Positions 3,168 to 62,714 of a stretch of DNA of 64,000 nt are shown one piece after another. Origin of the DNA: Nitrospirota bacterium (GTDB lineage: Bacteria; Nitrospirota; UBA9217); NCBI GenBank assembly GCA_963740085.1, contig CAVUCU010000005.1, forward strand, positions 352,001 through 416,000, in the 5' to 3' direction. The notes beneath the pieces were generated by a model, which was given only the letters and a program-made list of their open reading frames with translations, made no database searches and was not told the origin of the DNA. Positions within the stretch are counted from its first letter, which is position 1. Each line of letters begins with the position of its first letter. A program made the translations under genes and the position numbers.

Positions 3168-3294
3168 TTAGCCGCAAAAGAACGCATAGAAAATAAAAAA
3201 CTTAAAGCTAACATTAGCTCACCGTCTGGGTGATGAGCTTTTACGAAACAACCTCTTGCTTTTCTTTGAGATCTCTGCGTTCTCTTGCGGCCAA
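3168..3294. repeat. Intergenic imperfect palindrome, 9-bp periodic arms
   Basis: Left arm TTAGCCGCAAAAGAACGCATAGA; reverse complement of right arm TTGGCCGCAAGAGAACGCAGAGA. Confidence 0.8.
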
Positions 3295-3505
3295 CTGCTC
3301 TTTTTAGGATGAAGGCGCCCCGGCATACCCTATCTGTTCTGACGTCTGCCAGGGCAGGCGGCAAGTCCGGAGAGATTGTCAGCCGGCCTTTTCATGAACA
3401 CGGTTATGCGCTATCTCAATAATTACAGAAGCAGGCCTGCCTCCCCTGCGCCTCCTGCATTTGCCGTTGATCTGCGCTATACTTGTCTGCAAAGGCGGAA
3501 ATGAC

Positions 3506-4456
3506 ATGGCCAAAAACAGCCTGGATGTGCTTCAGACAATATTTTCGGGAGATCTCTTCGTGATCAGCGGCACCCCGATCACGCTTCTCGGTCTCGTTCA
3601 AGTAGCTTTTATCATCGCGGCCGCGTGGTGGGTATCGAGGCTTACGCGCCGCGGCCTGCAGCGCGTAGCGCACTACCGGACCGGCGTCAGGCCGTCGTCC
3701 CTCTATGCCCTCGGACGGGTGCTGCACTATGTCATCGTTCTGATAGGACTCCTCATCGGTCTGTCGACGCTGGGCTTCAGCTTTAAAAATTTTGCGATCG
3801 TGGCCGGAGCGCTCGGCATAGGCATCGGTTTCGGCCTCCAATCCATGGTCAACAACTTCGTCGCCGGCCTGATCCTCCTGTTCGAAAAGAGCCTCAAGGT
3901 GGACGATTTCGTCGAGCTCGAATCGGGTGTCGTGGGTCGGGTGCGGGAGATCAACTTTCGCAGCACCCGCGTCACGACCAACGACAATATTGACATCCTC
4001 GTTCCGAATTCAGAGTTCGTGAACGGACGGTTGACCAACTGGACCTTGGACGAAGAATATCGCCGCATCCACGTTCCCTTCGGTGTGGCCTACGGGATGA
4101 ACAAGGAACAGGTCCGCAAGGCCGGGCTCGAAGCCGCGGCGGCAGTGCCCCATACCCTCTCCGGCGTCCCGCAGCGCGAACCCCAGGTCTGGTTCGTCGG
4201 CTTCGGCGACAGCAGCCTCAACTTCGAGCTGGTCGTCTGGCTTACCCCGCCTGCGGTGAAACTGCCGTCCGCGGTCGTGGCCGACTATCTCTGGGAGATC
4301 CACAGCGCCCTTGAAAAGTACGAGATCGAGGTCCCTTTCCCGCAGCGGGACATTCACCTGAAAAGCTTCTTCGGCGCAAAGGGCGGTCAGGCCCGGGCCT
4401 TCTTCACGCAAGGCGGCGAAAGACCGGCGACGGAGATGCCGGGAGACGAACGATAG
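3506..4456 (+). CDS. mscS: Small-conductance mechanosensitive channel MscS family
   Basis: GALGIGIGFGLQSMVNNFVAGLILL, VPNS and IEVPFPQRD motifs. ATG 3506 chosen as start. Confidence 0.9.
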   Translation: MAKNSLDVLQTIFSGDLFVISGTPITLLGLVQVAFIIAAAWWVSRLTRRGLQRVAHYRTGVRPSSLYALGRVLHYVIVLIGLLIGLSTLGFSFKNFAIVAGALGIGIGFGLQSMVNNFVAGLILLFEKSLKVDDFVELESGVVGRVREINFRSTRVTTNDNIDILVPNSEFVNGRLTNWTLDEEYRRIHVPFGVAYGMNKEQVRKAGLEAAAAVPHTLSGVPQREPQVWFVGFGDSSLNFELVVWLTPPAVKLPSAVVADYLWEIHSALEKYEIEVPFPQRDIHLKSFFGAKGGQARAFFTQGGERPATEMPGDER

Positions 4457-4531
4457 CAACCCGAAGGCCGCCCGCAGAAATCCTGTATGACCGATGTTAC
4501 CCAAACGGAACCAGAGCAAACAACATTGAGA

Positions 4532-4717
4532 CCGGCCGCATGAAGCCGACTTCATGGGCACCCTCGCCAGGCGCCCTCTGCGCGACAAGCTTATTGTGCT
4601 GAAGGACACGGCGAGGTTCCTTGCGCCCCGGGAAAATATAATTGGGGACGTCAGATGCTCTGGCAGGCGATCACAAGGCAGGTAACGGGCGGATATAATC
4701 CCCGGCGGTGGCTATAA
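4532..4717 (+). pseudogene. Diverged, frameshifted copy of the last 187 bp of the GGR-family gene (2746-2932)
   Basis: Manual alignment gives about 85% identity, mostly synonymous changes, and one 1-bp deletion. It ends at the equivalent stop codon. Confidence 0.9.
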
Positions 4718-4968
4718 GAGAGAGGAGCGGGTTTTCGCGACCCTCGCGACGCGCAAGGTTGAATTCACTTCTTTGTTTTTCTGTTACTTGCAAGATTGAG
4801 CAAAGCATCAGGATGTTTTTCCGCAACTTGCAGTAATATGCGCGCCGGCCGGCACGGAATAATTTACGTTAAGCCTTTCCTCTCTCATTTTGCCGCTGCA
4901 CAACGTTAATGATAAGCCGCATCAAACTCCTCGGGATATTCGATCAGCGCCTTCGTATCAAGCTTGCA

Positions 4969-6411
4969 TCAGCTATTTATTAATTCGGAAGGCTGTTGCA
5001 TATCTGTTCCTTTCAAATATACCGATAAGACCGTTCCCTCGCCCTCCTCGCTTTTAATTTCTATTTTGCCTCCATGAATCCTGGCTATCTCCCGGCAGAT
5101 GCTGAGTCCCAATCCACTGCCATCGATCTCTTTAGAACGGGAATGATCTGCCCGGTAAAAACGTTCGAACACTTTGTCCAGCGCATCAGCGGGTATGCCG
5201 ATCCCGGTATCACTTATTTCGCATACAATGAATTCCGGTTCCTCCCTGGCGGAAATATGCACCTGGCCTTGGGGGACGTTGTATTTAATGGCATTGTCCA
5301 GGAGATTGGTAAACAGTTCCAGCAGATATTCTCGGTCTCCCCGGACCAATAATGAAGCCAGTACTTGCGAGGTTTCTATGCGGACCCCTTTCTGCTCGGC
5401 AAGATGACCAAGCAGCTTTACCACATCGTTTATGAGTGTTTTGACATTAATGGATTCAAACTTCAATGCAACTTTATCTGCACTAAAGCGGGTCAAGGTA
5501 AGAAGTTTTCGGACTGTTGATGACATCGTTTGTGCCGCTTGTACGATAGCACGCAGACTGCTTTTGTATTCTTCCGCGGTTCTTTCTTTTCGGAGCGTAA
5601 TCTCGCCCTGACTCAGAATGACCGAGAGCGGCGTCCTGAGCTCATGGGAAGCGTCCGCTGCAAACCGTTTCTGCCGGTTAAACGCTTCTTCCATTCTGTT
5701 GAACGTTCGGTTGAAAGAAGCGGCAAGAATTTTCAACTCACGAGGAACGCCCTGCAGGGAAACTCGCCTCGTGAGGTCCTGCTCTGATATCCTGTCGATG
5801 GTCTGTGAAATATCCAGCACGGGAGCAAGTGCTTTCTTGGCGATAATAAAGCCGCCTAATGCTGATAGAAGCATGACAAAAAAAACAGCGCCGGCCAGGA
5901 TGGTACGAAAGTCTTCAAGAAAATCCAATTCGAATCCAATATCCTCACCGCACTGAACGACCAGCCCATGCATGCGCCTCTTTTCTGCATTTTCCCTCTG
6001 TCCCCCTGAACCGTTTATGAAATTAACGAGTCGCACAGTCCGGCCGTCCATGCGGATCGTTGAAATATGCGTGCGTGAATCGTTTTCGGGTGGGGGGGGC
6101 AGCTCCATCTCGCCCAACGAAGCCGATTTTGCCATGGTCGTCCCGTCTGCGCGACGCACTTGGAAGAAACTCCCTGACCTCGGTGAACGGTATTCCCACA
6201 TGATCTCATCGGACAAATTGAAGTCGCTTTCATTGCTGTCAATATCGATAAGCGATGCAATCGCCTTGGCTCTGGCAAGCAGACCTGCGTCAAGGGATTT
6301 ATACACGATTTTGTTGAGGCTGAAATAAAGGAATATCCCCAGTACGGAGAGAACGACAAATAAAACGGTAATGTAGTATAAAATGATTTTTGCCTTGATC
6401 GATGAAAGCAT
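4969..6411 (-). CDS. Sensor histidine kinase (CusS/CzcS-like; HAMP-HisKA-HATPase)
   Basis: FAADASHELRTPL H-box, NLLDNAIKY, DTGIGI and GSGLGL; two TM helices. Confidence 0.93.
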   Translation of the reverse strand: MLSSIKAKIILYYITVLFVVLSVLGIFLYFSLNKIVYKSLDAGLLARAKAIASLIDIDSNESDFNLSDEIMWEYRSPRSGSFFQVRRADGTTMAKSASLGEMELPPPPENDSRTHISTIRMDGRTVRLVNFINGSGGQRENAEKRRMHGLVVQCGEDIGFELDFLEDFRTILAGAVFFVMLLSALGGFIIAKKALAPVLDISQTIDRISEQDLTRRVSLQGVPRELKILAASFNRTFNRMEEAFNRQKRFAADASHELRTPLSVILSQGEITLRKERTAEEYKSSLRAIVQAAQTMSSTVRKLLTLTRFSADKVALKFESINVKTLINDVVKLLGHLAEQKGVRIETSQVLASLLVRGDREYLLELFTNLLDNAIKYNVPQGQVHISAREEPEFIVCEISDTGIGIPADALDKVFERFYRADHSRSKEIDGSGLGLSICREIARIHGGKIEIKSEEGEGTVLSVYLKGTDMQQPSELINS

Positions 6412-7087: not shown

Positions 7088-10000
7088 TTACCCATCCCTG
7101 TCCGGCCCGCTTTCTCTGCGTTGCGCCGGTGATAATAGATAATATAGCGACGGCAGGACAATAAGCGCAAGTGGGATCTGGACCAGCAATCCTGCAATAA
7201 TCGCGACGGCAAGCGGCTGTTGCATGGCGGCCCCTTGGCCCAGGGCCAGCGCCAGAGGCAGAAGAGTCAGAATAGCCACAAATGTCGTCATAATAATCGG
7301 CCTCATGCGGTTTTTTCCCGCCTCTATCAATGCGGGAAGCATGTCCATGGTTCGCGCGAGATCGCTATATTCAGAGAAATAAAATATGGCGACTTCGGTG
7401 ACGATTCCGACGATCATGGTCATTCCCATCATTGCGGAGATATTGAGCTCAATGCCGGTCACCCATAGTCCGATGAACACCGCCGACAGGGACAGGAGAG
7501 GGATCACCATGATCGCCAGAACGATCCGAAATCGCTCGTACAAAAAAAGGAGAAGAAGGAAAACCAGCACCAGGGCAGCAATAAACACGGCGATGAGGCC
7601 GCGGAACGCGATCTGCTGCTGCTTGTACATTCCCCCAAGCTCGAAGTAAACGCCTTGCGGCACTAATCCGGGGCGCGCCATCAGCTTTCGCACGTCCTGG
7701 ATGACCGAGCCGAGGTCACGTCCGGTGATGCGGGCTGTTACCGCGGTCATCCTCTTCAGGTTTTCACTGGTAATTTCGGGCTGGCCAATGACCGCCGTTA
7801 CGCTTGCCACCCGTCGCAAGGGGAACATATGCCCGTCAGGGGCGCGCATCACGAGTGCCCCGATTTCTTTTTCAGTGGCGCGCAAATCAGGCGAGATCCA
7901 GACTCGTACGCCGACCATTTTGACTCCTTCCTGCACCTGGGTGGTGACCGACCCGGACAGGTAGTCATTCAGCATGCGGGTAACTGCATCGGGATCGACC
8001 CCTTCCAAAGCGGCCTTGGTACGGTCCACCTGAACATCCAGCGCATCCCCCGCAAGTACGATCCCGTTGCGGACATCCACCACGCCGCGTATACTGCTGA
8101 CCGCATCCGCAACATTCCGGCTCGCGGTTGCGAGTTGAGTTTGTTCGTCCGAGTACAGCTTTATCTCGATGGGTTGCGGCACTGAGGTCAGATCGCCGAT
8201 GAGATCTTCCATGAGCTTGGCGAGTTCGATCTTTATTCCGGGCACTTCAAGCTCGACTTTGTTCCTGATCTCGTCCATGACTTCATCGATGGGCCGCCGC
8301 GGCAATGGTTTCAGACGGATGAAAAAATCGCCCTGGTTTGCTTCCGTCAATGCGCCGCCGAGCTGCGTGCCGGTACGGCGTGAATAGGTAAGAACCTCAG
8401 GGGTAGCCTTGACGATTTCCCCCATCTGGCGAAGCAGACGGTCGGTTTCGGTGAGGGCGGTGCCGGGCGGAGTGACATAGTCGAGGATGAAGCCGCCTTC
8501 ATCCATCGACGGCATGAAACCGGAACCGACCTGCCGGTAACCGATGTATCCCACCAAAAGAAGCGGCACTATCCCTACCAGGATCAAAACGGGCTTCTGC
8601 AATACCCGCCTCATGAGCCACTCGTATGCCCGATGAGAACGGTCTCGGAACGGACCGCCCTCGTTCTCTTCCGCTTCTTTTCTTCCGAGCAGATGATCGG
8701 CGAGAAGGGGGATGGCGAGCCAGGTGATGAGAAATGAGATGATCAGCGCGGCCGCCATGGTGAGCGAGAGCGCCTTGAAAAAGGCGCCCGTTACCCCGCT
8801 CAGGAACGCCAGCGGAAGGAAGATGATGATCGTGGCCGACGAGGAGCCCGCAAGAGGCTGAGCAAACTCACGTGCCGCCGCCATTACGCGGCCCTCATGA
8901 TTTTCCCTGCTGCCGCGCAGGCGACGCATGATGTGTTCGACCATCACGACGACGTCGTCGATGATCAGGCCGACGGCTGCCGCCATGCCGCCCAGCGTCA
9001 TGATATTGAAGCTCATGTTGAACGCGTACAGCAGGACGACCGTGGCCGCCAGGACCGTCGGAACGACGATGATGGCGATGATGGTGATTTTCAGATTGCG
9101 CAGGAACAGGAACAACACCACTGCGCCGAGGAGCACCCCGATGATGATCGCGTCGCGCACGCTGGTCGCGGATGCGATGATGAGCTCGCTCTGGTCATAC
9201 CAGTTGCTGATTCGGACCCCTTCAGGCAGCTGGGGCTGAAAGGCGCCAAGTTTCGCCTTGATGTCCCTGGCGATCTGGACGGTATTGCCGCCCGGCTGTT
9301 GATATACCTGAATCAGTACCGAATCATGCCCGTCCGCGGTCACGCGTTGCCACTGCGGAACGATATCACGCTGTACTGTTGCAACCTCCTCGAGGCGGAC
9401 GATGCCGTTCGGCCCGCTGCGCATAACGGTACTGAGGATCTGGTCAAGGCCGGAAAGCCGCGTGTCCGACATAACGAGATAGAGTTTGTAATGGTCCTCC
9501 ATGCGCCCCACGGCCGTGATCACATTGGCTGCCGAGAGTGTTTGCGCCACGTCGTTCAAAGTCAGTCCGTAGGTTTGCAGACGGGCCGGGTCCACCGTAA
9601 CACGGTATTCCTCCAGGTTGCCCCCGAGGACCTGTACCCGTGATATGCCGTTGACACTGGACAGCAGGGGAACCAGTTTGTATTGAGCGAGGTCGCGCAG
9701 CTCAACGAGGGAACGGCTGTCGGATGTCAGGCTGTAGGCCAGGACCGGAAACACCGTCGGGTCCATACGCTTGACCTGAAACACCGTTCCCGGCGGCAGC
9801 TGGGGCATCGCCCGGCTGACCGCAGACTCGACCTGCAGCTGCGAGGCAACCATATCGACGCCCCAGTCGAAATCAACTGATATATCGGCACTGCCGCGGC
9901 TGCTGGTAGAGCGCACCGAGATGACGCCTGGCACCGAACGGACAGCTTCTTCTACGGGCCGCGTCACTTGAAGTTCCATCAATTCCGCGTCCCGGTCTCC

Positions 10001-13757: not shown

Positions 13758-14216
13758 TTACGCTGCCACCTTCACCACGATCTTCATGACTGGTGATGAT
13801 GTACTTCCTGCCAGTTTCGGCGCATGCCCGTCTTCCGGCCAGAACACTGCAAGTTGACCTGCCTGCAAATGAGCTGGCGTCCATGTTCCCTTTACTACAG
13901 TTCCGAAGCAGATGTCCTTGCCTGCATCATAGGCCTCAGTGACCGTCATCAGTTCCATCGGCACACATCCGATGACCTCTTCCCCCGAAACGATGAACTG
14001 GACGTCGATGTACTTCCGGTGGTATTCGAACTTCGGCGCGTCGGTAATCATTGTCTCATACCGCTGTACCAGGGCAAACACATGATCCCTCTCGATCTCC
14101 ACCCTGCCATCGGGCAGGCTGTGAAGATGACGCCTGCGCAAAAAAGTAAGGGCCTTCTGCAATCCAGGTGTAAGGGCGATCTGATGATCAATGTGATCGA
14201 GATCTGAGATGAGCAT
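13758..14216 (-). CDS. YhcH/YjgK/YiaL (DUF386) family protein
   Basis: FEYHRKYIDVQFIVSGEE and FWPEDGHAP...KIVVKV motifs. Confidence 0.9.
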   Translation of the reverse strand: MLISDLDHIDHQIALTPGLQKALTFLRRRHLHSLPDGRVEIERDHVFALVQRYETMITDAPKFEYHRKYIDVQFIVSGEEVIGCVPMELMTVTEAYDAGKDICFGTVVKGTWTPAHLQAGQLAVFWPEDGHAPKLAGSTSSPVMKIVVKVAA

Positions 14217-14269
14217 GATGTTCTCCTGACAAGATGGAACGAACTGGCACTGATAAATTGGTGAGTACT

Positions 14270-14406
14270 CAGGTAGAGAGACTGAAGGTGTAAGGTTTAT
14301 AGGAGCAAATCGTGCGCGATCTTACCAAAACATCGGACATTTGAGATGATTTGAAATAACTGATGATCGATATATGCCAACCTTCAGTCTTCAGTCTAAA
14401 TACCTG
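14270..14406. repeat. Intergenic imperfect palindrome, 7-bp (GACTGAA) arms
   Basis: Left arm CAGGTAGAGAGACTGAAGGTGTAAGGTT; reverse complement of right arm CAGGTATTTAGACTGAAGACTGAAGGTT. Confidence 0.75.
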
Positions 14407-14440
14407 GATTGCGAGCTTAGCTCCATCCCCCTGCGGTTGT

Positions 14441-14995
14441 TCATCTCTTCTTAACAGGTGCCTTATTCCCCTTGCGCAATATCAAGCCGATATACTTGTT
14501 GATCGGGTTTGAACGGTCAAGGAACGGCACGGGGGCTTTTTTCCTTGACCCCAGGGCCCGCAATTCCAACTGAATATCACGGTTGCTGCTGTCATACTTC
14601 AGCCCTTTTTCAAAAGTTTCAAGCGCGTCTTTTTTCCTGCCTGCGGCAATGTACGCCCTTCCGAGATTAAGTAAAAATGCCGGGTAGAGCATATCCTCGC
14701 CAAACGATGACTCCTTTTTTAACAGGGAAATGGCCTGCTTGCATTTATCAACACCGGAACGGTACTTTTTGTCCACCAGGGCCTGAAGACAACCATAATA
14801 GGAGAGGATGAAAGGATCGTCGGGATACTCCACGGAGGCCTGCTGCAGGAGACTGAAGGCCTCCTTCTGGTCTCCCTTCCGGAGATGTGCCTTCACTTGC
14901 CGCAGATACTCACCGGGCCTTATTCCACCGCCACCGCCGGGCATCGCGGACCCGCTTACATTCACTGCTTTTATCGAATCGTCCGTTTCATTCAT
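14441..14995 (-). CDS. Tetratricopeptide-repeat protein
   Basis: TPR-like helices (LLNLGRAYIAAGRKKDALETFEKGLKYD) and a C-terminal PVPFLDRSNPINKYIG motif. Confidence 0.75.
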   Translation of the reverse strand: MNETDDSIKAVNVSGSAMPGGGGGIRPGEYLRQVKAHLRKGDQKEAFSLLQQASVEYPDDPFILSYYGCLQALVDKKYRSGVDKCKQAISLLKKESSFGEDMLYPAFLLNLGRAYIAAGRKKDALETFEKGLKYDSSNRDIQLELRALGSRKKAPVPFLDRSNPINKYIGLILRKGNKAPVKKR

Positions 14996-15083
14996 GCTTG
15001 TATTTTATCATATCCGCGGACGAAGCGAATGTGATTGTTATCACACCGGATAAACAGGATGGAAAGGTGATCCATCAATTGCC

Positions 15084-15719
15084 TTATGCGCCGGATCTCT
15101 TCATCAGGAGCATCTTCGCGAATTTTTCACGACTGATAATTCCTTCGTCAATCAGGAGATCGATCAACGCTTCAAGTCGTAATTCCCTCTCACGCTGCTC
15201 CTGCTGCCAGCTTTCCGCCATTTCTTTGGGACGAATAATTTCCAATTTTCCGAAATTTGATTTCTTACTTGGTTTCCGATCAACCGCCTCGCCATCGTAA
15301 TATTTACGGATCGCATCTTTAATCTCGGATTCCAGTGCAAGAACCGGAGAGATTTTCAGGCTGGTGATAAATTGAAGCTCACTTATCGCGTCAAGATCAA
15401 AGGGGTCGGCCATAGCTACATATAAGGTATTCTCACGCAACCTGGTCGGAACAACCTCATACTTCTTAACCAATTTAGGCGAAAGCAGCTTTATTTGTTT
15501 ATCCACAAGGGGAGGATCAAATAAGTTGACATAGGGGATTCTGATATATTTCGAGATGGCTTCAGCTAATTCCACTTCGTTTACGAACCCCAGCTCAATG
15601 AGATTGTGTCCAAGCTTCCCCCCCCAGGTCTTCTGGCGAACCAGTGCTGCATCCAGCTGCATTTGATCTATGAGACCGGTTTCTATCAGTATTTCACCAA
15701 GTTTTTTAACCATAAACAC
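15084..15719 (-). CDS. Stand-alone MshEN/T2SSE_N (GspE/PilB N-terminal) domain protein
   Basis: KLGEILIETGLIDQMQLDAALVRQ, KLGHNLIELGFV and LYVAMADP; no ATPase domain. Confidence 0.82.
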   Translation of the reverse strand: MFMVKKLGEILIETGLIDQMQLDAALVRQKTWGGKLGHNLIELGFVNEVELAEAISKYIRIPYVNLFDPPLVDKQIKLLSPKLVKKYEVVPTRLRENTLYVAMADPFDLDAISELQFITSLKISPVLALESEIKDAIRKYYDGEAVDRKPSKKSNFGKLEIIRPKEMAESWQQEQRERELRLEALIDLLIDEGIISREKFAKMLLMKRSGA

Positions 15720-15800
15720 GTCCTCCCGCCTGTTGGCAAAAAATTAAAGCAATGATCTGCATTCAACTTCCGCTGATAAAATAACGTTTCGATGCAGTAG

Positions 15801-15829
15801 ATTATAGTCCTTCGTGAAGTTATTGGCAA
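15801..15829 (-). promoter_or_regulatory. Sigma70-type promoter
   Basis: TTGCCA-N17-TATAAT on the minus strand upstream of the MshEN gene. Confidence 0.65.
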
Positions 15830-15924
15830 GGAGCTTTCAGTTGATCATGATCAGAGAAGAAGCAAAATTCTGTGATCTCTGTGCTCTGTACGGCCAAATG
15901 TTTTTCCCGGAATGATTTTTTCCT

Positions 15925-18495
15925 TCACATCCGCCGCGGTTTCGCGCGCTTTGTCGGAGCGGCGTTCCAGGGGTCATCCGGCCAGGGGTGCCTGGGGTAG
16001 CGGCCCTTCAGGTCCTTTTTCACAAGCGGGTACCCCGTGTTCCAGAACCCCCTCAGGTCCCGGGTGATCTGGACCGGCCTGCCCGCGGGAGAAAGAAGAT
16101 GCAGCAGGACCTTGACGCGTCCGCTTGCTATCGTCGGGGTGTCCGCGAGCCCGAACATCTCCTGGAGCTTGACGGCGAGTATAGGCTGATCACCGGAAGA
16201 ATAATCGAGCGCCACCCGGCTGCCACTCGGCACCGTGATCGCCAGCGGCGCGCGTTCGTCGAGGAGCCGCCCCTGTTCCCGGGAAAGTTTCGCTTTGAGC
16301 GCCCGCAGCACGTTCAACCCCCGCAGCCCCTGCGCACTGCCAATATTCCCGAGCCAGGGAAGAAGCCATTCTTTCGGGTCGGCAAGAAGGTGCTCATCGG
16401 AAAGGTCGGGCCAGGTCTCTTCTGGAAAGACCTTCTTCATGAGGCCTGTTCTGGCCTGAAGCTGCCTTGCCTCTTTACCGAAGTTCAGCAGCCCCGGATT
16501 CGCGCGCACCTCATCGCACAGGATCGGCGCCGCCTCTTCATCAGCGGGCGTGAAGGGCCGGGCTGAAAGGAGCAGCGTCCCCAGCCGCTCTTCTTCCGCG
16601 GCCGCGATCCTGCCCTCCTTCCGATCCCATTCCACCCTCCTGACCGTTTCGATATTCCCCGCGCATTCGCTCCGGATAAGTTCCTCGGTGACCGGCGCGG
16701 CCATGTGGATAAAACCTTCCGTCTTCTCGCCTGCATCGACGTTAACGGCGATGAGGTAAGAGCTGCTTACGAGATGACTGTCCAAAGAGAGGCGCACGCC
16801 CCTTCCCGGGACAAGGACGTAACTGCGACTGCCTTCTTCGCGGCGCTTGCAGATCCTGTCCGGATATGCTGCGAGTAACAGCCGGGCGATAGCATCATGA
16901 TCAACGTTCTTTTCAGTTGGAGCGCCCTTGGACAGTCCTTCTTGAATTTTGATGTTGGTTTCTTGAGAAATTGAACCGGACATCAGGCGCCGGAGTTGCT
17001 GCGAGGTCCGTTCCACGGCCCGGAGCGCCCAGTGATCAGTTGCCCCGCCTGCCTCCGTTCCCTTTCGTCCCCTGCGCAGCGCGTCGATCCTCTCCGAAAT
17101 ATCAGGCTCATTGAGCCTGCGGTCCGCTGCGCCGTGACGGAATATCTCCCGTTCCGACAGGATGGCCGCAAGGTCCGCGCCCAGGCGCGCACACCCCAGT
17201 TCCTCCGACCTCATCATGAGACGTGAAAGCCTTGGATGGAGGGGAAAGCGGGCCATTGCCCTGCCAAGCGAGGTGATCGAAGACGAGGCGTCGAGGGCGC
17301 CAAGGTCCTGAAGCAGCTGCACGCCTGTTGCCCATGCCGCGGCAGGCGGGTCATCGAGCCATGAGAGCGCGTGCGGGTTTTTCACTCCCCATGCCGCCAG
17401 TTCAAGAGCAAGCGGGGAAAGGTCGGATACGAGGATCTCGGGTTGCGTATAGGGCAGCATGCCGTGAAGGTCATGCTTGCTGTAGAGACGATAGCACACA
17501 CCCGGTCCGAGCCGTCCCGCCCTGCCCCTTCGCTGTTCTGCTGATGCCTTCGAGACTGGGACGGTCACCAGCCGGTTCATTCCCGTCGCGGGATCGTACC
17601 TGAGCATGCGGGTCAGGCCGCTGTCGATGACCACGTGCATGCCCTCGATGGTGAGGCTCGTCTCGGCGATGTTCGTGGCGAGCACGATCTTCCGCTGGTC
17701 CTTTGACGGGAGAAGGGCGCGCTCCTGTTCCTCGAACGGCAAGTCTCCATACAGCGGATGCAGCGCAATGCGGTCTTCGCTCATGTTCAGTGATGCACGA
17801 AGCTGCCGGTCGCATGCGCGGATCTCGCCGGAGCCGGGAAGGAACACGAGGATATCGCCATACGTGTCATTCAAGGCGGTCTTTATCACCGAGGCGACGC
17901 GGAGGGGAAGAGGACCGGAAGTGTCTTCGACGTACCGCTCTTCCACGGGAAAGGCCTTGCCGCTCGAGGTGATCACCGGCGCGTTGCCGAGCAGGGCAGC
18001 GATGGGAGCGCACTCCATGGTAGCGGACATGACCAGGATCTTCAGGTCCTCGCGAAGTTGTTTACGGATATCGAGGCAGAGCGCGAGGGCAAGGTCCGCG
18101 TGGATGCTCCGCTCATGGAATTCGTCGAAGATGACCATGGCGACGCCCTGGAGACCCGGGTCGGCCTGGATGCGGCGCGCGAGGATGCCTTCGGTCACGA
18201 CCTCGATCCGGGTCCTTTCCGATCTCTTCGCGTCGAAGCGTATGGAATAGCCCACGGTCTCGCCCGCTTGCTCGCCAAGCGTTTTCGCCATCCAGCGCGC
18301 GGCCGAGACGGCGGCGATCCTGCGCGGTTCGAGCATGATGATCCGGCCCTGATCAGCCGGCAATACGTCAAGAAGGGCGAGCGGGACGCGCGTGGTCTTG
18401 CCGGCCCCCGGCGGCGCGTGCAGAACGATTGACGGATTATTGAGGACCGCCTGGTTCAGCTTCGGAAGGATCGTATCGATGGGATAGGAAGTCAT
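15925..18495 (-). CDS. hrpB: ATP-dependent RNA helicase HrpB
   Basis: APPGAGKTT, DEFHER, MSAT, LATNIAETSLTI, QRRGRAGR and C-terminal GRYPRHPWPDDP. Confidence 0.97.
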   Translation of the reverse strand: MTSYPIDTILPKLNQAVLNNPSIVLHAPPGAGKTTRVPLALLDVLPADQGRIIMLEPRRIAAVSAARWMAKTLGEQAGETVGYSIRFDAKRSERTRIEVVTEGILARRIQADPGLQGVAMVIFDEFHERSIHADLALALCLDIRKQLREDLKILVMSATMECAPIAALLGNAPVITSSGKAFPVEERYVEDTSGPLPLRVASVIKTALNDTYGDILVFLPGSGEIRACDRQLRASLNMSEDRIALHPLYGDLPFEEQERALLPSKDQRKIVLATNIAETSLTIEGMHVVIDSGLTRMLRYDPATGMNRLVTVPVSKASAEQRRGRAGRLGPGVCYRLYSKHDLHGMLPYTQPEILVSDLSPLALELAAWGVKNPHALSWLDDPPAAAWATGVQLLQDLGALDASSSITSLGRAMARFPLHPRLSRLMMRSEELGCARLGADLAAILSEREIFRHGAADRRLNEPDISERIDALRRGRKGTEAGGATDHWALRAVERTSQQLRRLMSGSISQETNIKIQEGLSKGAPTEKNVDHDAIARLLLAAYPDRICKRREEGSRSYVLVPGRGVRLSLDSHLVSSSYLIAVNVDAGEKTEGFIHMAAPVTEELIRSECAGNIETVRRVEWDRKEGRIAAAEEERLGTLLLSARPFTPADEEAAPILCDEVRANPGLLNFGKEARQLQARTGLMKKVFPEETWPDLSDEHLLADPKEWLLPWLGNIGSAQGLRGLNVLRALKAKLSREQGRLLDERAPLAITVPSGSRVALDYSSGDQPILAVKLQEMFGLADTPTIASGRVKVLLHLLSPAGRPVQITRDLRGFWNTGYPLVKKDLKGRYPRHPWPDDPWNAAPTKRAKPRRM

Positions 18496-18533
18496 GACAA
18501 GCCTTCAGCCCCTGCTCAGGACCTTACAACCTT

Positions 18534-18631
18534 TCAGGAGAAAGGGGAAAACGGGAGAAATGGAGAAAAAATATATTTTCTATTTATTTCATTCATCCCC
18601 CTTTCGCCTCTCAATTCTCCGTTTCTCCTGA
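18534..18631. repeat. Intergenic imperfect palindrome, ~8-bp (GGAGAAAN) arms
   Basis: Left arm TCAGGAGAAAGGGGAAAACGGGAGAAATGGAGAA; reverse complement of right arm TCAGGAGAAACGGAGAATTGAGAGG; AT-rich loop. Confidence 0.75.
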
Positions 18632-18638
18632 GAGCTTT

Positions 18639-19481: not shown

Positions 19482-19518
19482 AGAATTGAGGATGAGACAA
19501 CCGTTAAAATCAACAGCC

Positions 19519-19613
19519 ACCGCGGAGGCACTGAGACACGGAGAACATCGAAAATAGGGGACACATCCCTTTATCTTCTCGATCCTCCTCCGTGGCCTCC
19601 GTGTCTCCGTGGT
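19519..19613. repeat. Intergenic imperfect palindrome, CACGGAG-based arms (8-9 bp period)
   Basis: Left arm ACCGCGGAGGCACTGAGACACGGAG; reverse complement of right arm ACCACGGAGACACGGAGGCCACGGAG. Confidence 0.8.
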
Positions 19614-19652
19614 AAAAAAATCTTTACGGTTTTATCTCATGGGTATGGCAGG

Positions 19653-20078
19653 CTACTTCCCGAGAAGGGTCGTGAACGTATCGTGGTGATCTTCCTCTTC
19701 AGCGAGGATCTGCTCGAAGAGCAGCCGGGTCGTGGAATCACCCTCTGTTGACGCCTGCTTGATGATCTTCTTGTACAGGTCGATGGCCTCTTCCTCGGCC
19801 TTCGCGTCATACTTGAGCATCTCCTTGACCGTACCGCCCACCTTGATAGGATCCGGCTTGGTCGTGGGAACGATGTCGAAATAGAATATCCTCTCCGCGA
19901 TCTTCTCGGCGTGCTTCATCTCCGTGATCGCGACCTCCTCGAACACATCGGCGATCTCCGCCGATTCCAGTCCCTTTGCCATGATATGCTGCCACATGTA
20001 TTGAACGCTCACCTGTATCTCGCGCGCGATCGCCTGCTGCATCATATCGGTCAACTTGACGCTTGCTTTCTGTACCAT
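19653..20078 (-). CDS. Bacterioferritin-like ferritin-fold protein
   Basis: Di-iron ligands in REIQVSVQY, EMKHAE, EEEAIDLY and EEDHHD. Confidence 0.85.
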   Translation of the reverse strand: MVQKASVKLTDMMQQAIAREIQVSVQYMWQHIMAKGLESAEIADVFEEVAITEMKHAEKIAERIFYFDIVPTTKPDPIKVGGTVKEMLKYDAKAEEEAIDLYKKIIKQASTEGDSTTRLLFEQILAEEEDHHDTFTTLLGK

Positions 20079-21012: not shown

Positions 21013-21028
21013 ATTTTGGGAGACCTTT

Positions 21029-22234: not shown

Positions 22235-22238
22235 ATTT

Positions 22239-41597: not shown

Positions 41598-42056
<459 letters not shown>

Positions 42057-51004: not shown

Positions 51005-51355
51005 ATGAAAATCAGCGTGGAAAATTTACCAGCCGACATCACCGAGGAAGGACTGAAAGACGTATTTGGCCAAATAGGAGATGTCCAGTCAGTCAAACTG
51101 AAGACCGACCTGCTCACCTGGCAGCCGAACGGTCAGGGAATCGTGGACATGACGCTGGAGGTGGACGCCTACCGGGCGATCAACTGCTTTGAAGGTGCGA
51201 CCTTCAAGGACAGAAAGATACATGTCAGGGAAACCCATCCGCTGCTCGAAAAGGCAAAAAACATGTTCGAGCACTTCACCGATGGTCACTCACTGTCGAA
51301 CTTTAAACCGCTGGCCAGCTTCGGGCGCTGGAGAGAACAGCACAAGGACCTTTGA
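51005..51355 (+). CDS. RRM (RNP-1) RNA-binding protein, divergent
   Basis: KI.VENLP..ITEE.L..VF...G.V.SV RRM pattern. Confidence 0.75.
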   Translation: MKISVENLPADITEEGLKDVFGQIGDVQSVKLKTDLLTWQPNGQGIVDMTLEVDAYRAINCFEGATFKDRKIHVRETHPLLEKAKNMFEHFTDGHSLSNFKPLASFGRWREQHKDL

Positions 51356-54684: not shown

Positions 54685-54719
54685 AAAAAAGCCCATGCTG
54701 ATTTCACAGCATGGGCTTT
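54685..54719. terminator. Intrinsic terminator of the fdh-fhs operon
   Basis: AAAGCCCATGCTG-ATTTCA-CAGCATGGGCTTT with a T6 tail on the minus strand. Confidence 0.88.
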
Positions 54720-56601: not shown

Positions 56602-59271
56602 TCATGCCTTTTCAATCCGTACCGCACACACCTTGAACTCGGGGATCTTGACAACAGGATCGAGCGCGTCGTTGGTGATCACGTTCGCTGCGGCCTCCCG
56701 ATAATGCATGGGGATGAAGACCGTGCCTGCGGGAACGCGGCCCGATATCCTGACCTTGATATCCACCTCTCCCCGGCGTGAACGAACCCTGATCAGATCG
56801 CCGTTCTGAACCCCGAGTTTCCGCCCGTCAATGGCATTCAATTCCACATACGCTTCACCCGCATGTTTTTCGATGGGTTCAACCCGCCTTGTCATCGAAC
56901 CTGAATGGTACTGAAACAGGTTTCTCCCCGTGGTCAGCACATAGGGATATTCACTATTGGTGACCTCCGCGGGCGGATTGTAAGGAACCGTAACAAAGGG
57001 CACTTTCCCTTTGGGGAATCCATCCTTATAGAGATACTCGGTGCCGGGGTGGTCCCTTGTAGGACAAGGCCAGGGGATGCCGTTGACCGCGATGCGGTCA
57101 TAGGTTATCCCTGCCATGGCAGGCCAGAGCTTGCCGTACTCCTCGAGCACCTTCGCCGGAGAATCATAGATCATGGGATAGCCCAGGTTTTTCGAGAGGT
57201 CCATGATGATGGAGAGATCTTCCCTTGCCTCGCCTGGAGGCTCCACCGCTTTTCGCACGCGCTGGACCTTTCTCTCGGTGTTGCTGAACGTGCCGTCCTT
57301 CTCGTATGCGCACGCGGCGGGCAGCACGATGTCCGCGAGTTTCGCGGTTTCAGTCAGAAAGATGTCCTGCACGATCAAAAAGTCGAGACGATCCAGCGCC
57401 TTGACCGTATGGTGCATGTGGGGATCGGTAATTATCGGGTTCTCTCCCATGATATACATGGCCTTAAGCTTCCCGTCCGCCGCCGCGTTGATCATTTCCG
57501 TGGCGGTAAGACCGGGTTTGGGCGAGAGCTGGACGCCCCATGCTTGTTCGAACTTCACCCTCATCTCCGGAGTATCCACTTTTTGATATCCGGGGTAAAC
57601 GTCCGGAAGGCACGCCGCATCGGAAGCGCCCTGCACATTGTTCTGCCCCCGCAACGGGTTGACGCCGGTAAATTCGCGCCCGATATTTCCCGTAAGCGTC
57701 GCAAGGTTTGCGATCGCCCTGACATTATCGGTGCCGCATGTATGCTGCGTGATCCCCATGGTATAGAAGATGCCCGCTCTGCGGGATTTACCGTAGAGCC
57801 GGGCGGCCTTGACAAGGCTGTCCTTCGGGACACCGGTGATCCGCTCCACCTTCTCCGGAGTGAATTCCTCGAGGGAGTGTTTCCAGGCGTCAAATCCATC
57901 GGTCTTGTCCCTGATGAACTCGTCGTTCTGAAGGCCTTCGCTCACGATCACCCGGGCGATGCCGTTCAGCAGGGCGACATCGGTGCCCGGCCTCATCTGC
58001 AGAAAGATGTCGGCGAACTTGACCATGGGAACGCTCCGCGGGTCAGCGATGATGATCTTCGCTCCCTTGCGGAAGGCCTTGATCATCCTGTTCGCGATGA
58101 CGGGATGGGTCTCCTTGGTGTTCGAGCCGATGATGAAGATGATTTCCATGCCCTCGATCTCCCGTATCGAGTTTGTCATGGCCCCGGAACCGAAGATGGC
58201 GGCCAGCCCGGCCACCGTTGGAGAATGTCAGAGACGCGCGCAGTGATCGACATTGTTCGTGCCGATTCCCGCGCGCATGAATTTTTGGAACAGATAGTTT
58301 TCTTCGTTCGTACAGCGCGCGGAGGAAAGCCCGCCGATCGCATCGGCGCCGTACTCCTCCTTGATCTTCTTGAGCCAGGTCGCGGTGTATGCCAGTGCGG
58401 CTGTCCAAGACGTCTCCTCGAACCTGCCGTCCGACCGCCTGATGAGGGGCTTGGTGAGGCGTTCGGGGCTGTTCACGAACCTGTACCCGAACCTGCCCTT
58501 GACGCAGAGCCATCCCTCGTTCCAGGTGTTCTGCTTCGAGGTGACCCGGATGATCTCGTTCTCCTTCACATGAGCCGTGATGTTGCAGCCGGTGCCGCAA
58601 TAGGCACAGACCGTGTCAACCTGCTTGATGTCCTGGTAACGTCCTTTGTGGGACCACTGTTTCCCGGTCAGCGCGCCCGTGGGACATACGGAAACACACT
58701 GTCCGCAGAACTCGCAGTCAAGGTCGTCTTCATAGGTGGTGCAGATCTTGGACTTGAATCCGCGGTACCCATAATCGATCGCCTCAACGCCCTGGATCTC
58801 GTCGCAAACCTTGACGCACCTTCCGCAAAGGATGCATTTCTCCATGTCCCGTTCAATGAAGGGATTGCCGTCCCGCTTGGGGTAAATACGCCGTTCGCCC
58901 GGATAGTCCGCCCCGCGCACGTCGTACGCGTAGGCAAGCTCCTGCAGTGCGCAATTGCCCGTCGCCTCGCAGACCATACAGTCATTGGGATGGTCCGAGA
59001 TGATCAGTTCCAATACCAGCTTTCTTAGTTCTTCGAGATGCGGGGTAGAGGTGGTGATCTCCATCCCTTCCGTGACGGGCGTTGTGCATGAGGCCACCGG
59101 TTTGGGTATCCCTTTTATCTCCACGATGCACAGGCGGCAGCCGCCGGACGGGGTGAGCTTGGGGTGATTGCAGAGCGTCGGTATAAAGATGCCGTGCATT
59201 CGCGCCGATTCGAGGACCGTACTGTTTGCGGGGACGGCAAGCACTTTACCGTTTATGGTTATCCGGACCAT
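56602..59271 (-). CDS. fdhF: Selenocysteine-containing formate dehydrogenase alpha subunit (NuoG-like Fe-S N-terminus + Mo/W-bisPGD domain), 889 aa
   Basis: The two track ORFs are in the same frame, joined at TGA 58228-58230 in NNVDHCARL-U-HSPTVAGL. PLRGQNNVQG motif present. Confidence 0.95.
58198..58216 (-). promoter_or_regulatory. Bacterial SECIS hairpin
   Basis: GGTGGCC-GGGCT-GGCCGCC begins 11 nt after the UGA. Confidence 0.8.
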
Positions 59272-61512: not shown

Positions 61513-61633
61513 AAGAAATATTTACCATTTATGCCTTATCATAGGCTAAGAGATCGAGCGGGGGATGTCGGTTTTTATCCATGCCCGCTTTATTCGATAA
61601 GGATCGGATTGTTCGGATGGCTGGAACGGTTTC

Positions 61634-62065
61634 CTAATACCCGGTAATGTAATCTTTCAGGTAATGAATCTCGGAAGTGAGCTTTTTGACCTGGACCTGA
61701 ATGATATCACGGATCGACAGCATTCCCACGATCTTGTTGTTCTCCAGTACGGGCAGATGTCTGATGTTTTTTTCGACCATTACTTTAGAAATATCGTCAA
61801 GATCGTCATCCGGAACGGCAACAATGAGATCGGCGACCATGGCATCCCTGACCTTGACATCCTTAAAGATCTTTCCACCAGAAGACAAATAACACCGTAC
61901 GACGTCCCGTTCGGTGAAAATGCCGACTGTCCTTCCTTCTTCGGTGACCATGATTGCGCTGATTTTCCGGCTGTGCATTGACCGGATGGCATCCTCAACA
62001 GAACTGCCGGCATCAATGGATACGACTTTGTGCCCCTTGGTATCCAACAACGTCTGCACTTTCAT
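61634..62065 (-). CDS. CBS-pair domain protein
   Basis: GIFTERD and IRHLPV...GMLSIRD; ATG after GGAGG. Confidence 0.92.
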   Translation of the reverse strand: MKVQTLLDTKGHKVVSIDAGSSVEDAIRSMHSRKISAIMVTEEGRTVGIFTERDVVRCYLSSGGKIFKDVKVRDAMVADLIVAVPDDDLDDISKVMVEKNIRHLPVLENNKIVGMLSIRDIIQVQVKKLTSEIHYLKDYITGY

Positions 62066-62122
62066 GGTCTTCACCTCCGCTGGTTTTTATACCATTTTGA
62101 ATCGACCGCATCTCCGAGGTCA

Positions 62123-62581
62123 TCAGTAGCTGATCAGCGCCTTCATGAGCTTCTCGTTCATCGAGTGCACGTTCTTGCTCGCGCTCCGCGCGATGGTTTT
62201 CATGATCTTATACATCATCATCGTGTCGCTTTTCTCCAACGCCTTGAAGTCATCGGTCTTGAAGCAGAAGACCTCCGTGCCCTCGATCGCCGTGGCGTTC
62301 GCGCCGTGCACTTTTTTATCCTCGATCACGGACAGCTCGCCCAAAATATGGTTTTCCGCGAGGATGGCGAGCGTCTGTTTCCAGCCATCGGGCGTGTTCT
62401 TTGAAATCTCCACCTTCCCTGCCTTCACGAGGTAGATGCCCTTGGTGGGCTCTCCCTCTTTGAAGATCGGCTTCCCTTTCGGGTAGCTTTCAACGGTGAT
62501 CTTCTTCGCCATTGTTTCGAGCTCGGCATCGGTCAAATCGCTGAACAGGATCTGTTTTTTAAGTTCGGCTTTGTCAGGCAT
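62123..62581 (-). CDS. Stand-alone cyclic-nucleotide-binding domain protein
   Basis: LFSDL, IFKEGE, IYLVKAGKVEI and GELS...ANATA; no HTH. Confidence 0.88.
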   Translation of the reverse strand: MPDKAELKKQILFSDLTDAELETMAKKITVESYPKGKPIFKEGEPTKGIYLVKAGKVEISKNTPDGWKQTLAILAENHILGELSVIEDKKVHGANATAIEGTEVFCFKTDDFKALEKSDTMMMYKIMKTIARSASKNVHSMNEKLMKALISY

Positions 62582-62616
62582 TGTTACCTCCTCGATGAAT
62601 GCTACTGAATTAAAAA

Positions 62617-62714
62617 CCGAGGGACGAGGATGACCGTTCACTCCGTTCATTCGGACGAGGGGCGCACTCATTCTTGCCCTTTTTGTCCTTCATCCCTCAT
62701 CCATCATCCCTCGG
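62617..62714. repeat. Intergenic palindrome with heptamer (GAGGGAY) arms
   Basis: Left arm CCGAGGGACGAGGATGA...GGACGAGGG; reverse complement of right arm CCGAGGGATGATGGATGAGGGATGAAGGAC. Confidence 0.75.

Follow-up and report, generated by a model that had tools for sequence, protein, structure and literature searches.

Inverted arrays of 7-9-nt units at operon junctions of a Nitrospirota bacterium belong to a repeat kind described in Geobacter, Pelobacter and Xanthomonas

Introduction

Paired arrays of short tandem units, facing each other on opposite strands, have been described in Geobacter metallireducens (Aklujkar et al., 2009; PMC2700814), Pelobacter carbinolicus (Aklujkar et al., 2012; PMC3543383) and Xanthomonas (Rehm et al., 2015; PMC4692102). 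Here we analyze 13 intergenic palindromes and two additional arms with this architecture in a 64-kb stretch of DNA from a Nitrospirota bacterium (GenBank assembly GCA_963740085.1, contig CAVUCU010000005.1, positions 352,001 to 416,000). We refer to this stretch as the window, count all coordinates from its first nucleotide (nt), and name each element by its first position (Table 1). The elements had been listed in an earlier note made from the sequence alone, which took them to share an architecture while being unrelated in sequence, and interpreted them as empty sites of a cassette mobility system or parts of an RNA-processing system.

As far as the available portions of the published reports go, the "putative global regulator binding sites" of G. 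metallireducens (Gmet_I1xx-I3xx) fall into classes 1-3 of 24, 21 and 8 pairs and consist, according to class, of four octamers, three 8-9-mers or five heptamers (Aklujkar et al., 2009; PMC2700814). The members of a pair lie on opposite strands at a variable distance, with the pyrimidine-rich strand outward and unrelated intervening sequences, and two insertion sequences keep a constant distance to class 1 arms. Binding of the global regulator IHF/HU was proposed in that report, which called the sites unique to G. metallireducens and described G. sulfurreducens as lacking them. Among the 14 pairs for which both rows are visible in that report, we count 12 between co-directional genes, two between convergent genes and none between divergent genes. 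In P. carbinolicus, the Pcar_R8 family comprises about 58 arms that occur as -/+ pairs 25-100 bp apart and in clusters, with one copy between dapB and dapL (Aklujkar et al., 2012; PMC3543383).

The Xanthomonas GGGAATC heptamer arrays form 70-75 convergent inverted pairs per genome, in which the G-rich array lies on the sense strand, at most 50 bp after a stop codon or overlapping it, and its complement at most 50 bp before the next open reading frame (ORF) (Rehm et al., 2015; PMC4692102). These arrays favor four units, are rare between divergent genes, lie beside housekeeping genes, are transcribed, and vary in length and sequence between close relatives; their function, in the words available from that report, is still to be found. 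Palindromic and direct-repeat multicopy families occur in 12% of the intergenic regions of G. bemidjiensis (PMC2996986), and a report on Beggiatoaceae, in the part available, describes direct heptamer repeats only (PMC4679880). In the literature that we found, no function has been assigned to paired tandem-unit arrays.

The window elements belong to the repeat kind published in 2009 and 2012 for Geobacter and Pelobacter and in 2015 for Xanthomonas, and this kind occurs more widely than the earlier reports of it.

Results

Palindromes in the window's spacers exceed chance

Evidence from the source genome comes from the window itself, whose guanine plus cytosine (GC) content is 55.4%; gene starts are our own ORF calls. 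For each of the 38 spacers that are 30 nt or longer (7.3 kb in total), we determined the highest-scoring gapless Watson-Crick palindrome, allowing loops of 3-100 nt, and compared the scores with those of 150 dinucleotide-preserving shuffles, counting a score of at least 11 as strong. Nine of the 38 spacers reached this score, compared to a shuffle mean of 0.39 and a maximum of 3. Eight of the nine strong spacers hold listed elements, and the ninth holds a hairpin that we read as an ordinary terminator (54688-54719). Over the whole window, 18 hairpins scored at least 11, 12 of them in the approximately 7.3 kb of spacer and six in the approximately 56.7 kb of coding DNA. A comparison of hairpins per kilobase between loci was dropped, as the six-frame ORF mask proved too greedy and classed only 5 of the 12 window spacer hairpins as non-coding.

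All 13 elements are present at, or a few bases from, the positions at which they had been noted, as confirmed by inspection of their sequences, and eight are among the 25 longest inverted repeats reported by a repeat finder. When both strands of each element were folded and compared with 150 dinucleotide shuffles, the ends were paired on both strands in 13 of 13, giving long imperfect hairpins. Energy z-scores for the + strand ranged from -2.7 to -6.4 in 12 elements and reached -1.05 for 30661-30745. Five elements (28123, 29031, 32013 and 40695, as well as 30661 by energy) are individually non-significant on one of the two measures. Loops measure 6-81 nt and are AT-rich, as had been noted: GC lies below the window's 0.554 in all 13 and below 0.45 in 11.

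The arms differ in composition. The purine fraction is 0.57-0.75 in the left arm, which is purine-rich in 13 of 13 elements, and at most 0.50 in the right arm, also in 13 of 13. That an A-rich arm comes first whichever way the flanking genes point had been taken as a property of the family. The purine-rich left arm stands, but its independence of gene direction carries no information, because X-loop-rc(X), read on the other strand, starts with X again and the purine arm therefore leads on either strand. Because the elements fall into about seven families, the 13 cases amount to roughly seven independent observations. Some heptamer palindromes in other genomes, read by eye, have the opposite handedness (7581-7728 in locus L014 and 25-97 in locus L019; both loci are introduced below).

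Half of the arms are periodic and six elements form one superfamily

Each of the 26 arms was compared with its own shuffles for periodicity at a cut-off of p<0.05. Thirteen were periodic, with best lags mostly of 7, 8 or 9; the 7-, 8- or 9-bp period attributed to all arms therefore holds for one half of them, the other half being non-significant. Tandem Repeats Finder (TRF) reported period-7 or period-14 arrays at 20940, 30660, 62686 and 14382 and a period of 8/9 at 19587, and three arrays show a clean 14-nt super-period of two alternating units.

To compare the arms, we aligned the outer 30 nt of the left arms with the reverse complements of the right arms. The elements do not all have unrelated sequences. 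Those at 3168, 19519, 22239, 28123, 32013 and 40695, together with both of the lone arms, align to one terminus and unit type, and the 12 arms of these six elements and the two lone arms carry the signature of a superfamily: a T-rich flank, an RCCRC terminus, and RAGRNCRC-type units of 8-9 nt. Among the six elements, the loops are unrelated to one another. Arm similarity was 0.55 within an element versus 0.46 between elements (permutation p 0.007), and the arms of a pair therefore co-vary. A CAGGGT-type unit is common to the 20940 and 29031 elements, and at least seven distinct unit types occur in the 64 kb. Two right arms had been listed as lone. This holds for the arm at 33268, which is without a clear left partner, but the arm at 15868 has a one-unit left partner at 15849-15858.

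In four superfamily elements (19519-19613, 28123-28195, 32013-32070 and 40695-40760), the left terminus is CCGC and the reverse-complemented right terminus is CCAC or CCAT, which places a G-T wobble on the + strand in four of four, irrespective of gene direction; four cases are too few to test.

The window elements share units with published repeats and have counterparts in several phyla

Like the Geobacter and Pelobacter sites, the window elements have opposite-strand arms of 3-5 units of 7-9 nt at a variable distance, with the pyrimidine strand outward, spacers that are unrelated between copies, and an intergenic location 3' of genes. The G. metallireducens class 2 unit TCTCCGTS is the motif of the CACGGAG element at 19519, and the Pcar_R8 unit matches the CGCNAAG elements of the window. 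By eye, a published-class unit and terminus are present in 6 of the 13 elements and in both lone arms, while the other seven differ. Whereas the Geobacter and Pelobacter classes consist of tens of near-identical copies, the superfamily in the window is far more diverged, and the window has at least six further unit types that occur once or twice.

The window elements share with the Xanthomonas GGGAATC and Nostoc GGGGAYT arrays, as described in the available part of Rehm et al. (2015; PMC4692102), the organization of heptamer arrays into frequent convergent inverted pairs. Their placement is also of the Xanthomonas type, with 11 of 13 within 50 nt of a stop codon and 13 of 13 between co-directional genes. 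Unlike the window, Xanthomonas has one dominant unit with the capacity to form G-quadruplexes. By inspection, four G3 tracts occur in the window only in the CAGGGTW element at 20940-21012, and its other units cannot form quadruplexes.

For comparison with other genomes, a DapA query against genome contigs yielded at least 80 loci at no more than 70% identity, picked regardless of repeats (each named below by L and a number; taxon names are the labels on their records). Over its outer 17 nt, the right arm of the 19519 element agrees at 16 of 17 positions with both arms of a hairpin in Azospirillum rugosum (L042), where 0.007 such matches are expected in the loci. Because this motif is found in the window and in A. 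rugosum, the G. metallireducens classes are not unique to that species. An nhmmer profile of the shared arm had little power (best E-value 0.67); its 12 matches include both A. rugosum arms as well as a coding repeat in L074 and apparently coding DNA in L022. A match to the 17-mer with two mismatches in L075 was discarded since it lies in GC-rich DNA that we judged to be coding.

In the 1.2 Mb of the 80 loci listed, we counted 47 arrays of tandem 7- or 8-mers. Besides A. rugosum, palindromic pairs occur in Nitrospinae (L004), two Desulfobacterota-type metagenome-assembled genomes (MAGs; L014 and L019), Omnitrophota (L017), a proteobacterial MAG (L031) and Planctomycetales (L048). By comparison of the units, a CAGGGGT type recurs in L014 and the window, and an AAATGNC type in L017 and the window.

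Elements abut stop codons between co-directional genes

All 13 elements lie between co-directional genes and none is in a divergent spacer. Eleven start within 50 nt past the upstream stop codon; the left edge is at most 11 nt from this stop in nine, and lies at or over it in four. In the nine + strand cases, the next predicted start lies a median of 19 nt beyond the element, leaving room for a ribosome-binding site only. Between 20.9 and 33.4 kb, nine spacers measure 30 nt or more, and seven of them contain full elements. In L004, L014, L017, L019, L031 and L048, too, arrays lie against stop codons or extend over them.

One of the window elements reaches into a predicted start. The sole candidate start codon of panC, a GTG at 19518-19520, shares two bases with the end of the 19519 element, and upstream of it we see no Shine-Dalgarno motif, only the pyrimidine-rich arm. 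Either the start call or the mode of initiation is questionable.

The elements behave like inserted DNA that is prone to turnover

In the distant genomes that keep this gene order, the corresponding junctions are shorter, usually 20-35 nt. Between dapF and dapA, the median gap is 20 nt (24 listed loci) compared to 147 nt in the window; between dapA and dapB, 35 nt (34 listed loci) compared to 100 nt; between lysA and dapF, 21 nt (15 listed loci) compared to 118 nt; between dapL and folK, 34 nt (9 listed loci) compared to 63 nt; and between argG and argH, 89 nt (15 listed loci) compared to 135 nt. Because the same junctions are short in most of these genomes, the window elements are insertions, and they take up the stretch from a stop codon to the ribosome-binding site that follows. 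Their adjacency to stop codons needs no targeting, because an ancestral spacer of 20-35 nt forces any tolerated insertion to lie next to the stop.

Two of the Desulfobacterota-type loci, L014 and L019, are about 80% identical in protein (64-84% in seven orthologous proteins) and allow junctions to be compared directly. Between dapA and dapB, L014 has a periodic palindrome of GTTCAAG units, while L019 has at that place a GTAG palindrome resembling repetitive extragenic palindromic (REP) sequences. At the junction before lysA, both have a left array of the GCTGTCAGC type; L014 has two left arrays and a right arm, and L019 is without the right arm. The GTTCAAG family appears in L019 after the S20 gene, with arms nearly as in L014 and an unrelated loop, and in both loci the first three bases of the GTTCAAG element are the TAG stop codon of the upstream gene. 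Because of these differences between L014 and L019, we conclude that such elements both persist and get replaced, in the same niche as REP-type repeats. With junctions short in most other genomes and differing elements in L014 and L019, the elements act like inserted DNA subject to turnover rather than like regulatory sites under conservation.

Several other repeats share these junctions. REP-like palindromes that start with GTAGGG occur in L019 (2495-2552, 9071-9130, 10886-10948 and 16710-16777) and in L009, a Geobacteraceae MAG (7755-7823); they are often inverted doublets and lie at the same kinds of junction as the periodic palindromes. The argG/argH junction of L014 contains at least five different small repeats, among them a palindrome of about 140 nt (3640-3780) that represents a further repeat type and is nested among heptamer arrays. 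Upstream of argH in L009 is a hairpin (6227-6344) with a GGCGTAGC...GCTACGCC core, which resembles a 24-member short-RNA family that the G. metallireducens report places 5' of lysine and arginine genes.

The elements lack the form of intrinsic terminators

Terminator and promoter scans covered 14000-33500, which contains 10 of the 13 elements. None of the 10 was called terminator-like, in agreement with the statement of the earlier note that the elements lack U-tails and are not terminators; the only call was a small hairpin within the loop of the 19519 element. The elements do not have the short GC-rich stem, 3-8-nt loop and U-tract of the intrinsic-terminator form. Outside the scanned range, we read three short-loop hairpins as ordinary terminators: 42089-42123 after atpE and 54688-54719 between convergent genes, both with flanking A/T runs, and 38863-38909 at the end of ksgA. 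All three differ in form and position from the periodic palindromes.

Two other roles were considered and set aside. The promoter scan found 13 promoter-like sites compared to 7.8 +/- 2.8 in shuffled DNA, which is not significant. Three of these sites touch elements (22275-22303, 30636-30664 and 32060-32087). The first, in the loop of the argG/argH element, is a near-consensus sigma-70-like match (TTGTGA, 17-nt spacer, TACAAT) facing argH. The idea that the heptamers provide stop codons in three frames fits, by eye, several arrays in other genomes and not most of the window arms.

The elements resemble, but differ from, other palindromic repeats

In REPs, each arm forms a short GC-rich hairpin of its own with GTAG conserved at its 5' end, and the cognate enzyme is a Y1 transposase, the REP-associated tyrosine transposase (RAYT). 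Like REP doublets forming hairpins (REPINs) and bacterial interspersed mosaic elements (BIMEs), the window elements have arms inverted around a short, less conserved spacer and are extragenic, at the 3' ends of genes within operons. Further parallels are decayed single arms and, in the available portions of the published reports, the alternating-arm clusters of P. carbinolicus and the targeting by insertion sequences in G. metallireducens. The niche is also that of REPINs, as GTAG palindromes in L019 hold junctions that periodic palindromes hold in L014. Unlike REPs, however, the window arms are tandem-periodic and not self-complementary, with ACCRC, CAGG, AAAT and other termini, and we found no RAYT among the 72 window ORFs scanned.

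Miniature inverted-repeat transposable elements share with the window elements their terminal inverted repeats, but by eye the latter have neither a consistent target duplication nor a common internal sequence. Foldback transposons of eukaryotes have long terminal inverted repeats made of short tandem sub-repeats, and heterogeneous centers. In contrast to the window elements, they are kilobase-scale and eukaryotic, and some carry genes; the likeness is one of form only.

Integron attC sites are imperfect palindromes of 60-140 nt between co-oriented genes, with a common architecture and little common sequence. Unlike attC sites, the window elements have no general core sites; only the arms at 28123-28195 and 33268-33285 end in a GTTAAA-like motif. 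The flanking genes, moreover, are not cassettes but a conserved housekeeping arg-lys-dap cluster shared across phyla, and scans of the window ORFs found no integrase. No Rfam family matched the window at gathering thresholds, and at E-values up to 1 (14000-33500) there were just two matches, to microRNA hairpins, which we took as chance.

Gene setting and other features of the window

The elements and the two additional arms are listed in Table 1. Many lie in a + strand cluster of argG, argH, a fibronectin-type-III-domain gene, lysA, dapF, dapA, dapB, a DsbC-like gene, a FAH-family gene, dapL and folK; the - strand genes of the window include hrpB, panC and a ferritin-like gene. The order argG-argH-lysA-dapF-dapA-dapB-(FAH)-dapL-folK-panC (20331-33245) is common, whole or in part, to about 25 of the 80 loci listed, including L001, L006, L009, L012-L014, L016-L021, L023, L027, L029-L031, L037, L040, L046 and L065. 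Nitrospirota, Omnitrophota, Elusimicrobia, Planctomycetota and Desulfobacterota-type MAGs are among the phyla represented. We found no tRNAs near the elements.

Table 1. Periodic palindromes and additional arms in the window. Score and p refer to the palindrome test and z to the fold energy of the + and - strands.
Feature	Coordinates	Position	Measurements
Palindrome, ACCGC/GCCGC-terminus superfamily	3168-3294	Between two + strand genes, 235 nt past upstream stop	Arms ~23 nt, loop ~80 nt, 87% complementary; score 15.5, p 0.007; z -4.7 (+), -8.4 (-)
Palindrome, GACTGAA-type heptamers	14270-14406	Between two - strand genes	Period 7 at 14382-14397; score 11, p 0.026; z ~-4 on both strands
Asymmetric member, ACCGC/GCCGT superfamily	15849-15898	Three-unit right arm 15868-15898, one-unit left partner 15849-15858	Period 9 at 15869-15887 (TRF); left and right partners pair at 9/10 positions
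Palindrome, GGAGAAAN octamers	18528-18637	1 nt from panC stop, upstream of hrpB, - strand side	Period-8 array 18545-18568; score 11.5, p 0.007
Palindrome, CACGGAG-type 8-9-nt units, ACCGC superfamily	19519-19613	End overlaps predicted panC GTG start	Period 8/9 (TRF, at 19587); score 12.5, p 0.007; z -6.4 and -6.0
Palindrome, CAGGGTW heptamers, alternating 14-nt super-period	20940-21012	First base after isomerase-gene stop to 16 nt before argG	TRF period 14, 100% matches; autocorrelation 0.86 at lag 7
Palindrome, CGCNAAG-type 8-9-nt units, ACCGC superfamily	22239-22323	argG/argH spacer	94% complementary; score 13.5
Palindrome of 128 nt, left side A/C-rich, loosely periodic	27092-27219	Overlaps dapF stop, ends 20 nt before dapA	Arms 47 nt, 72% complementary; score 14.5, p 0.013; right arm lag 7, p 0.004
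Palindrome, ACCGC superfamily	28123-28195	dapA/dapB spacer	Weak strict score 8, p 0.26; z -3.4 and -2.2
Short palindrome, CAGGGTC-like units	29031-29093	Between dapB and DsbC-like gene	Weak strict score 6.5, p 0.23; z -3.8 (+), -2.0 (-)
Palindrome, AAWYGCA heptamers, alternating 14-nt super-period	30661-30745	Between FAH-family gene and dapL	TRF period 14, 94%; score 13, p 0.007; z just -1.05 and -0.59
Short palindrome, ACCGC/GCCGC superfamily	32013-32070	dapL/folK spacer	Score 6.5, p 0.28; z -3.7 (+), -1.3 (-)
Lone right arm, ACCGC superfamily, no clear left partner	33268-33285	23 nt past deoxynucleoside kinase gene stop	
Short palindrome, ACCGC superfamily	40695-40760	Upstream of ATP synthase a-subunit gene	Score 8, p 0.50; z -2.7 and -2.1
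Palindrome, GAGGGAY/GATGRNG heptamers	62611-62720	End overlaps stop of upstream - strand molybdopterin oxidoreductase gene	Period 7/14 at 62686-62712; score 12; z -4.6 and -3.6

Another long-range inverted repeat, absent from the list in the earlier note, lies at 4705-4899 in the convergent spacer after a MscS-like gene. Its 29-nt arms are 72% complementary and 137 nt apart, purine-rich and then pyrimidine-rich. Two tandem repeats are in frame within ORFs: one with an 18-nt unit in 3.2 copies (42384-42441), inside the unassigned ORF 42173-42688, and a 6/21-nt repeat (41844-41905) in an N-terminal extension of the predicted atpE ORF, whose true start is probably later.

Three genes of the window deserve mention. 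A GSU2086-family protein is encoded at 39660-40589. The formate dehydrogenase alpha subunit at 56602-59271 (- strand), fused to a NuoG-like iron-sulfur domain, is interrupted by one in-frame TGA (58228-58230); reading this codon as selenocysteine gives the local peptide HCARLUHSPTV, which we take to be typical for selenocysteine formate dehydrogenases. Lastly, a small RNA-binding protein of the RRM type, a kind uncommon in bacteria, is encoded at 51005-51355; it is named here solely as a possible partner of repeat arms in single-stranded form.

Discussion

The periodic palindromes of the window are inserted DNA at operon junctions. We consider it about an even bet that they are REPIN- or foldback-like inserted repeats that are co-transcribed as hairpins, a reading in which we infer both the mobility and the function. 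Such an element would consist of two convergent arrays of 3-5 tandem 7-9-nt units, serving as arms around a variable AT-rich spacer. It would enter otherwise compact operon junctions by secondary insertion or expansion, survive only where tolerated, between a stop codon and the next ribosome-binding site, and be transcribed as part of the polycistronic mRNA. A long hairpin would form whichever strand is transcribed, and a hairpin or cruciform could form on single-stranded DNA. Any effect would most likely be a by-product of the hairpin, which may act as a barrier to 3' exonucleases, partially uncouple cistrons, or hinder terminating ribosomes. E. coli REPs have such effects, and it is by analogy with them that we suggest an RNA-level effect here. 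The elements may double as landing sites for site-specific insertion sequences. They might spread via an enzyme that reads the hairpin or the repeat, or through slippage followed by inverted duplication during template switching.

Several observations weigh against these elements being mobile repeats that are transcribed as hairpins. No transposase or other mobilizing gene for the repeats was found among the 72 window ORFs scanned, and inspection of the flanks by eye revealed no consistent target-site duplications; a flanking TA suits the GTTCAAG element of L019 and not that of L014. The listed loci include no close relative of the source genome, so that orthologous presence and absence come from L014 and L019 only. 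The copy in A. rugosum is located between divergent genes, which breaks the position rule, and blastn of this hairpin and of the 19519 element against a plasmid collection, with short queries and the low-complexity filter on, found no copies. By fold energy, only 7 of 13 elements are more stable on the sense strand, and because of this we see no signature of selection on the sense RNA. Furthermore, the copies of a family share arms and not spacers, which is unusual for elements that are copied whole; conservation of the arms alone fits selection or gene conversion on the arms equally well. A selfish-repeat model also does not explain the periodicity itself. Conserved arms with unrelated spacers, missing target duplications and periodicity would be compatible with a protein that recognizes units of about 7 nt or with an enzyme that builds the repeats.

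A broader proposal, which we regard as rather doubtful, is that inverted arrays of 7-9-nt sub-repeats are one mobile class across phyla, moved or rebuilt by an enzyme that reads periodicity and not a fixed sequence. This class could, with the same low probability, be a bacterial counterpart of foldback transposons in which periodic arms of fixed handedness are the sole requirement in cis. It would jointly account for the unit family seen in the source genome, G. metallireducens and Azospirillum, for the heptamer palindromes in Nitrospinae, Omnitrophota, Planctomycetales and Desulfobacterota-type loci, and for conserved arms with unrelated spacers.

One alternative is that an abundant DNA- or RNA-binding protein recognizes the arms as arrayed binding sites, which would make the elements regulated switches. 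HutP and cold-shock proteins have 7-nt footprints, and in a variant to which we would likewise give a small chance, one arm is bound by a protein that covers about 7 nt (an OB fold of the cold-shock or S1 type, or a ring antiterminator of the HutP/TRAP type), and the hairpin is thereby blocked. The 7-9-nt periodicity of 13 of the 26 arms and the occurrence of one unit motif in distant phyla fit such sites, as do the preference of Xanthomonas for four units (PMC4692102) and the original suggestion of global-regulator binding in G. metallireducens (PMC2700814), each as given in the available part of the report. The RRM-type gene co-occurs in the window, and that is all that links it to the arms. 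However, at least seven unit types in 64 kb would demand many proteins or very loose specificity, and most genomes have the same junctions without elements. The lack of elements in divergent, promoter-only spacers, both in the window and among the 14 G. metallireducens pairs, further argues against a role at promoters. We therefore hold this explanation to be unlikely.

It is decidedly unlikely that the elements are unconventional bidirectional terminators or attenuators that, without U-tails, set the ratio of gene expression in biosynthetic operons. They begin directly past stop codons, form stable hairpins on both strands and avoid divergent genes, and their Xanthomonas counterparts are transcribed, as stated in the portion of that report available (PMC4692102). 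Yet the terminator scan called none of the 10 elements that it covered, and the elements separate genes of one pathway that need joint expression (argG-argH and dapF-dapA-dapB) in an organism that has ordinary U-tailed terminators at 42089-42123 and 54688-54719. Large loops and mismatched arms of 25-47 nt make for poor terminators, and termination explains neither the periodicity nor the multicopy families.

The earlier note had proposed that the elements are sites at which a hairpin-based system mobilizes small cassettes, now empty or stripped of their cargo, and the argG/argH junction at first seems to offer the expected states. In 15 listed loci, its gap is 11-89 nt in eight and 142-364 nt in four, and three (L009, L014 and L019) have ORF insertions of 1.3-1.9 kb; the 135-nt gap of the window holds one element. 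Two ORFs of L014 are bracketed by complementary arrays, A-rich on one side (3467-3500) and T-rich on the other (4964-4992). Lone arms occur, and the insertion sequences at a fixed distance from G. metallireducens class 1 arms, described in the accessible part of that report (PMC2700814), also suit a mobility system. But the larger of the bracketed L014 ORFs is 57% identical to an ORF at the same junction of L019, both being DUF3108-like, and because this homologue occupies the same junction, the L014 ORF is a resident gene of the lineage and not a cassette. L009 has a different ORF pair there, the smaller of which looks NUDIX-like by motif. We scanned 90 of the 177 ORFs of 95-150 amino acids in the 80 listed loci for cargo, and none of the 90 belonged to the four-helix-bundle family of rRNA intervening sequences; no four-helix-bundle gene was found in the window. 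The window loops, at 6-81 nt, have no room for a gene, and paired arms are adjacent and, by eye, of one unit type. With resident DUF3108-like genes at this junction and no four-helix-bundle genes among the 90 small ORFs scanned, we find no support for the cassette interpretation and consider it very improbable.

We give equally little credence to the possibility that the elements are mutational by-products without mobility or function, in which slippage builds the arrays and template switching at stalled forks inverts copies: the perfect 14-nt super-periods suggest that slippage was recent, copies within a family have unrelated spacers, and polymerase slippage is a published suggestion for an excess of heptamers (available parts of PMC4679880 and PMC4692102), but near-identical arms at dozens of unlinked sites in G. 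metallireducens and P. carbinolicus (available parts of PMC2700814 and PMC3543383) and the 16/17 match across phyla are not expected from local mutation, which cannot give rise repeatedly to the same 25-30-nt arm.

In the window, elements take up a large share of the spacers in essential amino-acid operons, seven of the nine spacers of 30 nt or more between 20.9 and 33.4 kb. Three literatures, on the "global regulator sites" of Geobacter, the "multicopy sequences" of Pelobacter and the "quadruplex repeats" of Xanthomonas, appear to treat one phenomenon; the available passages of these reports contain no cross-references among them. Viewing the repeats as one kind gives annotators a name for inverted arrays of 7-9-nt units that abut stop codons in several phyla, and cautions against calling such elements terminators, small RNAs or regulator sites. 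It also raises the question of what reads or builds the 7-9-nt periodicity. A dedicated enzyme or binding protein, should there be one, would add a new player to the dynamics of bacterial genomes or to the control of operons; otherwise, the elements would cleanly exemplify selfish DNA whose form is set by what operon junctions permit.

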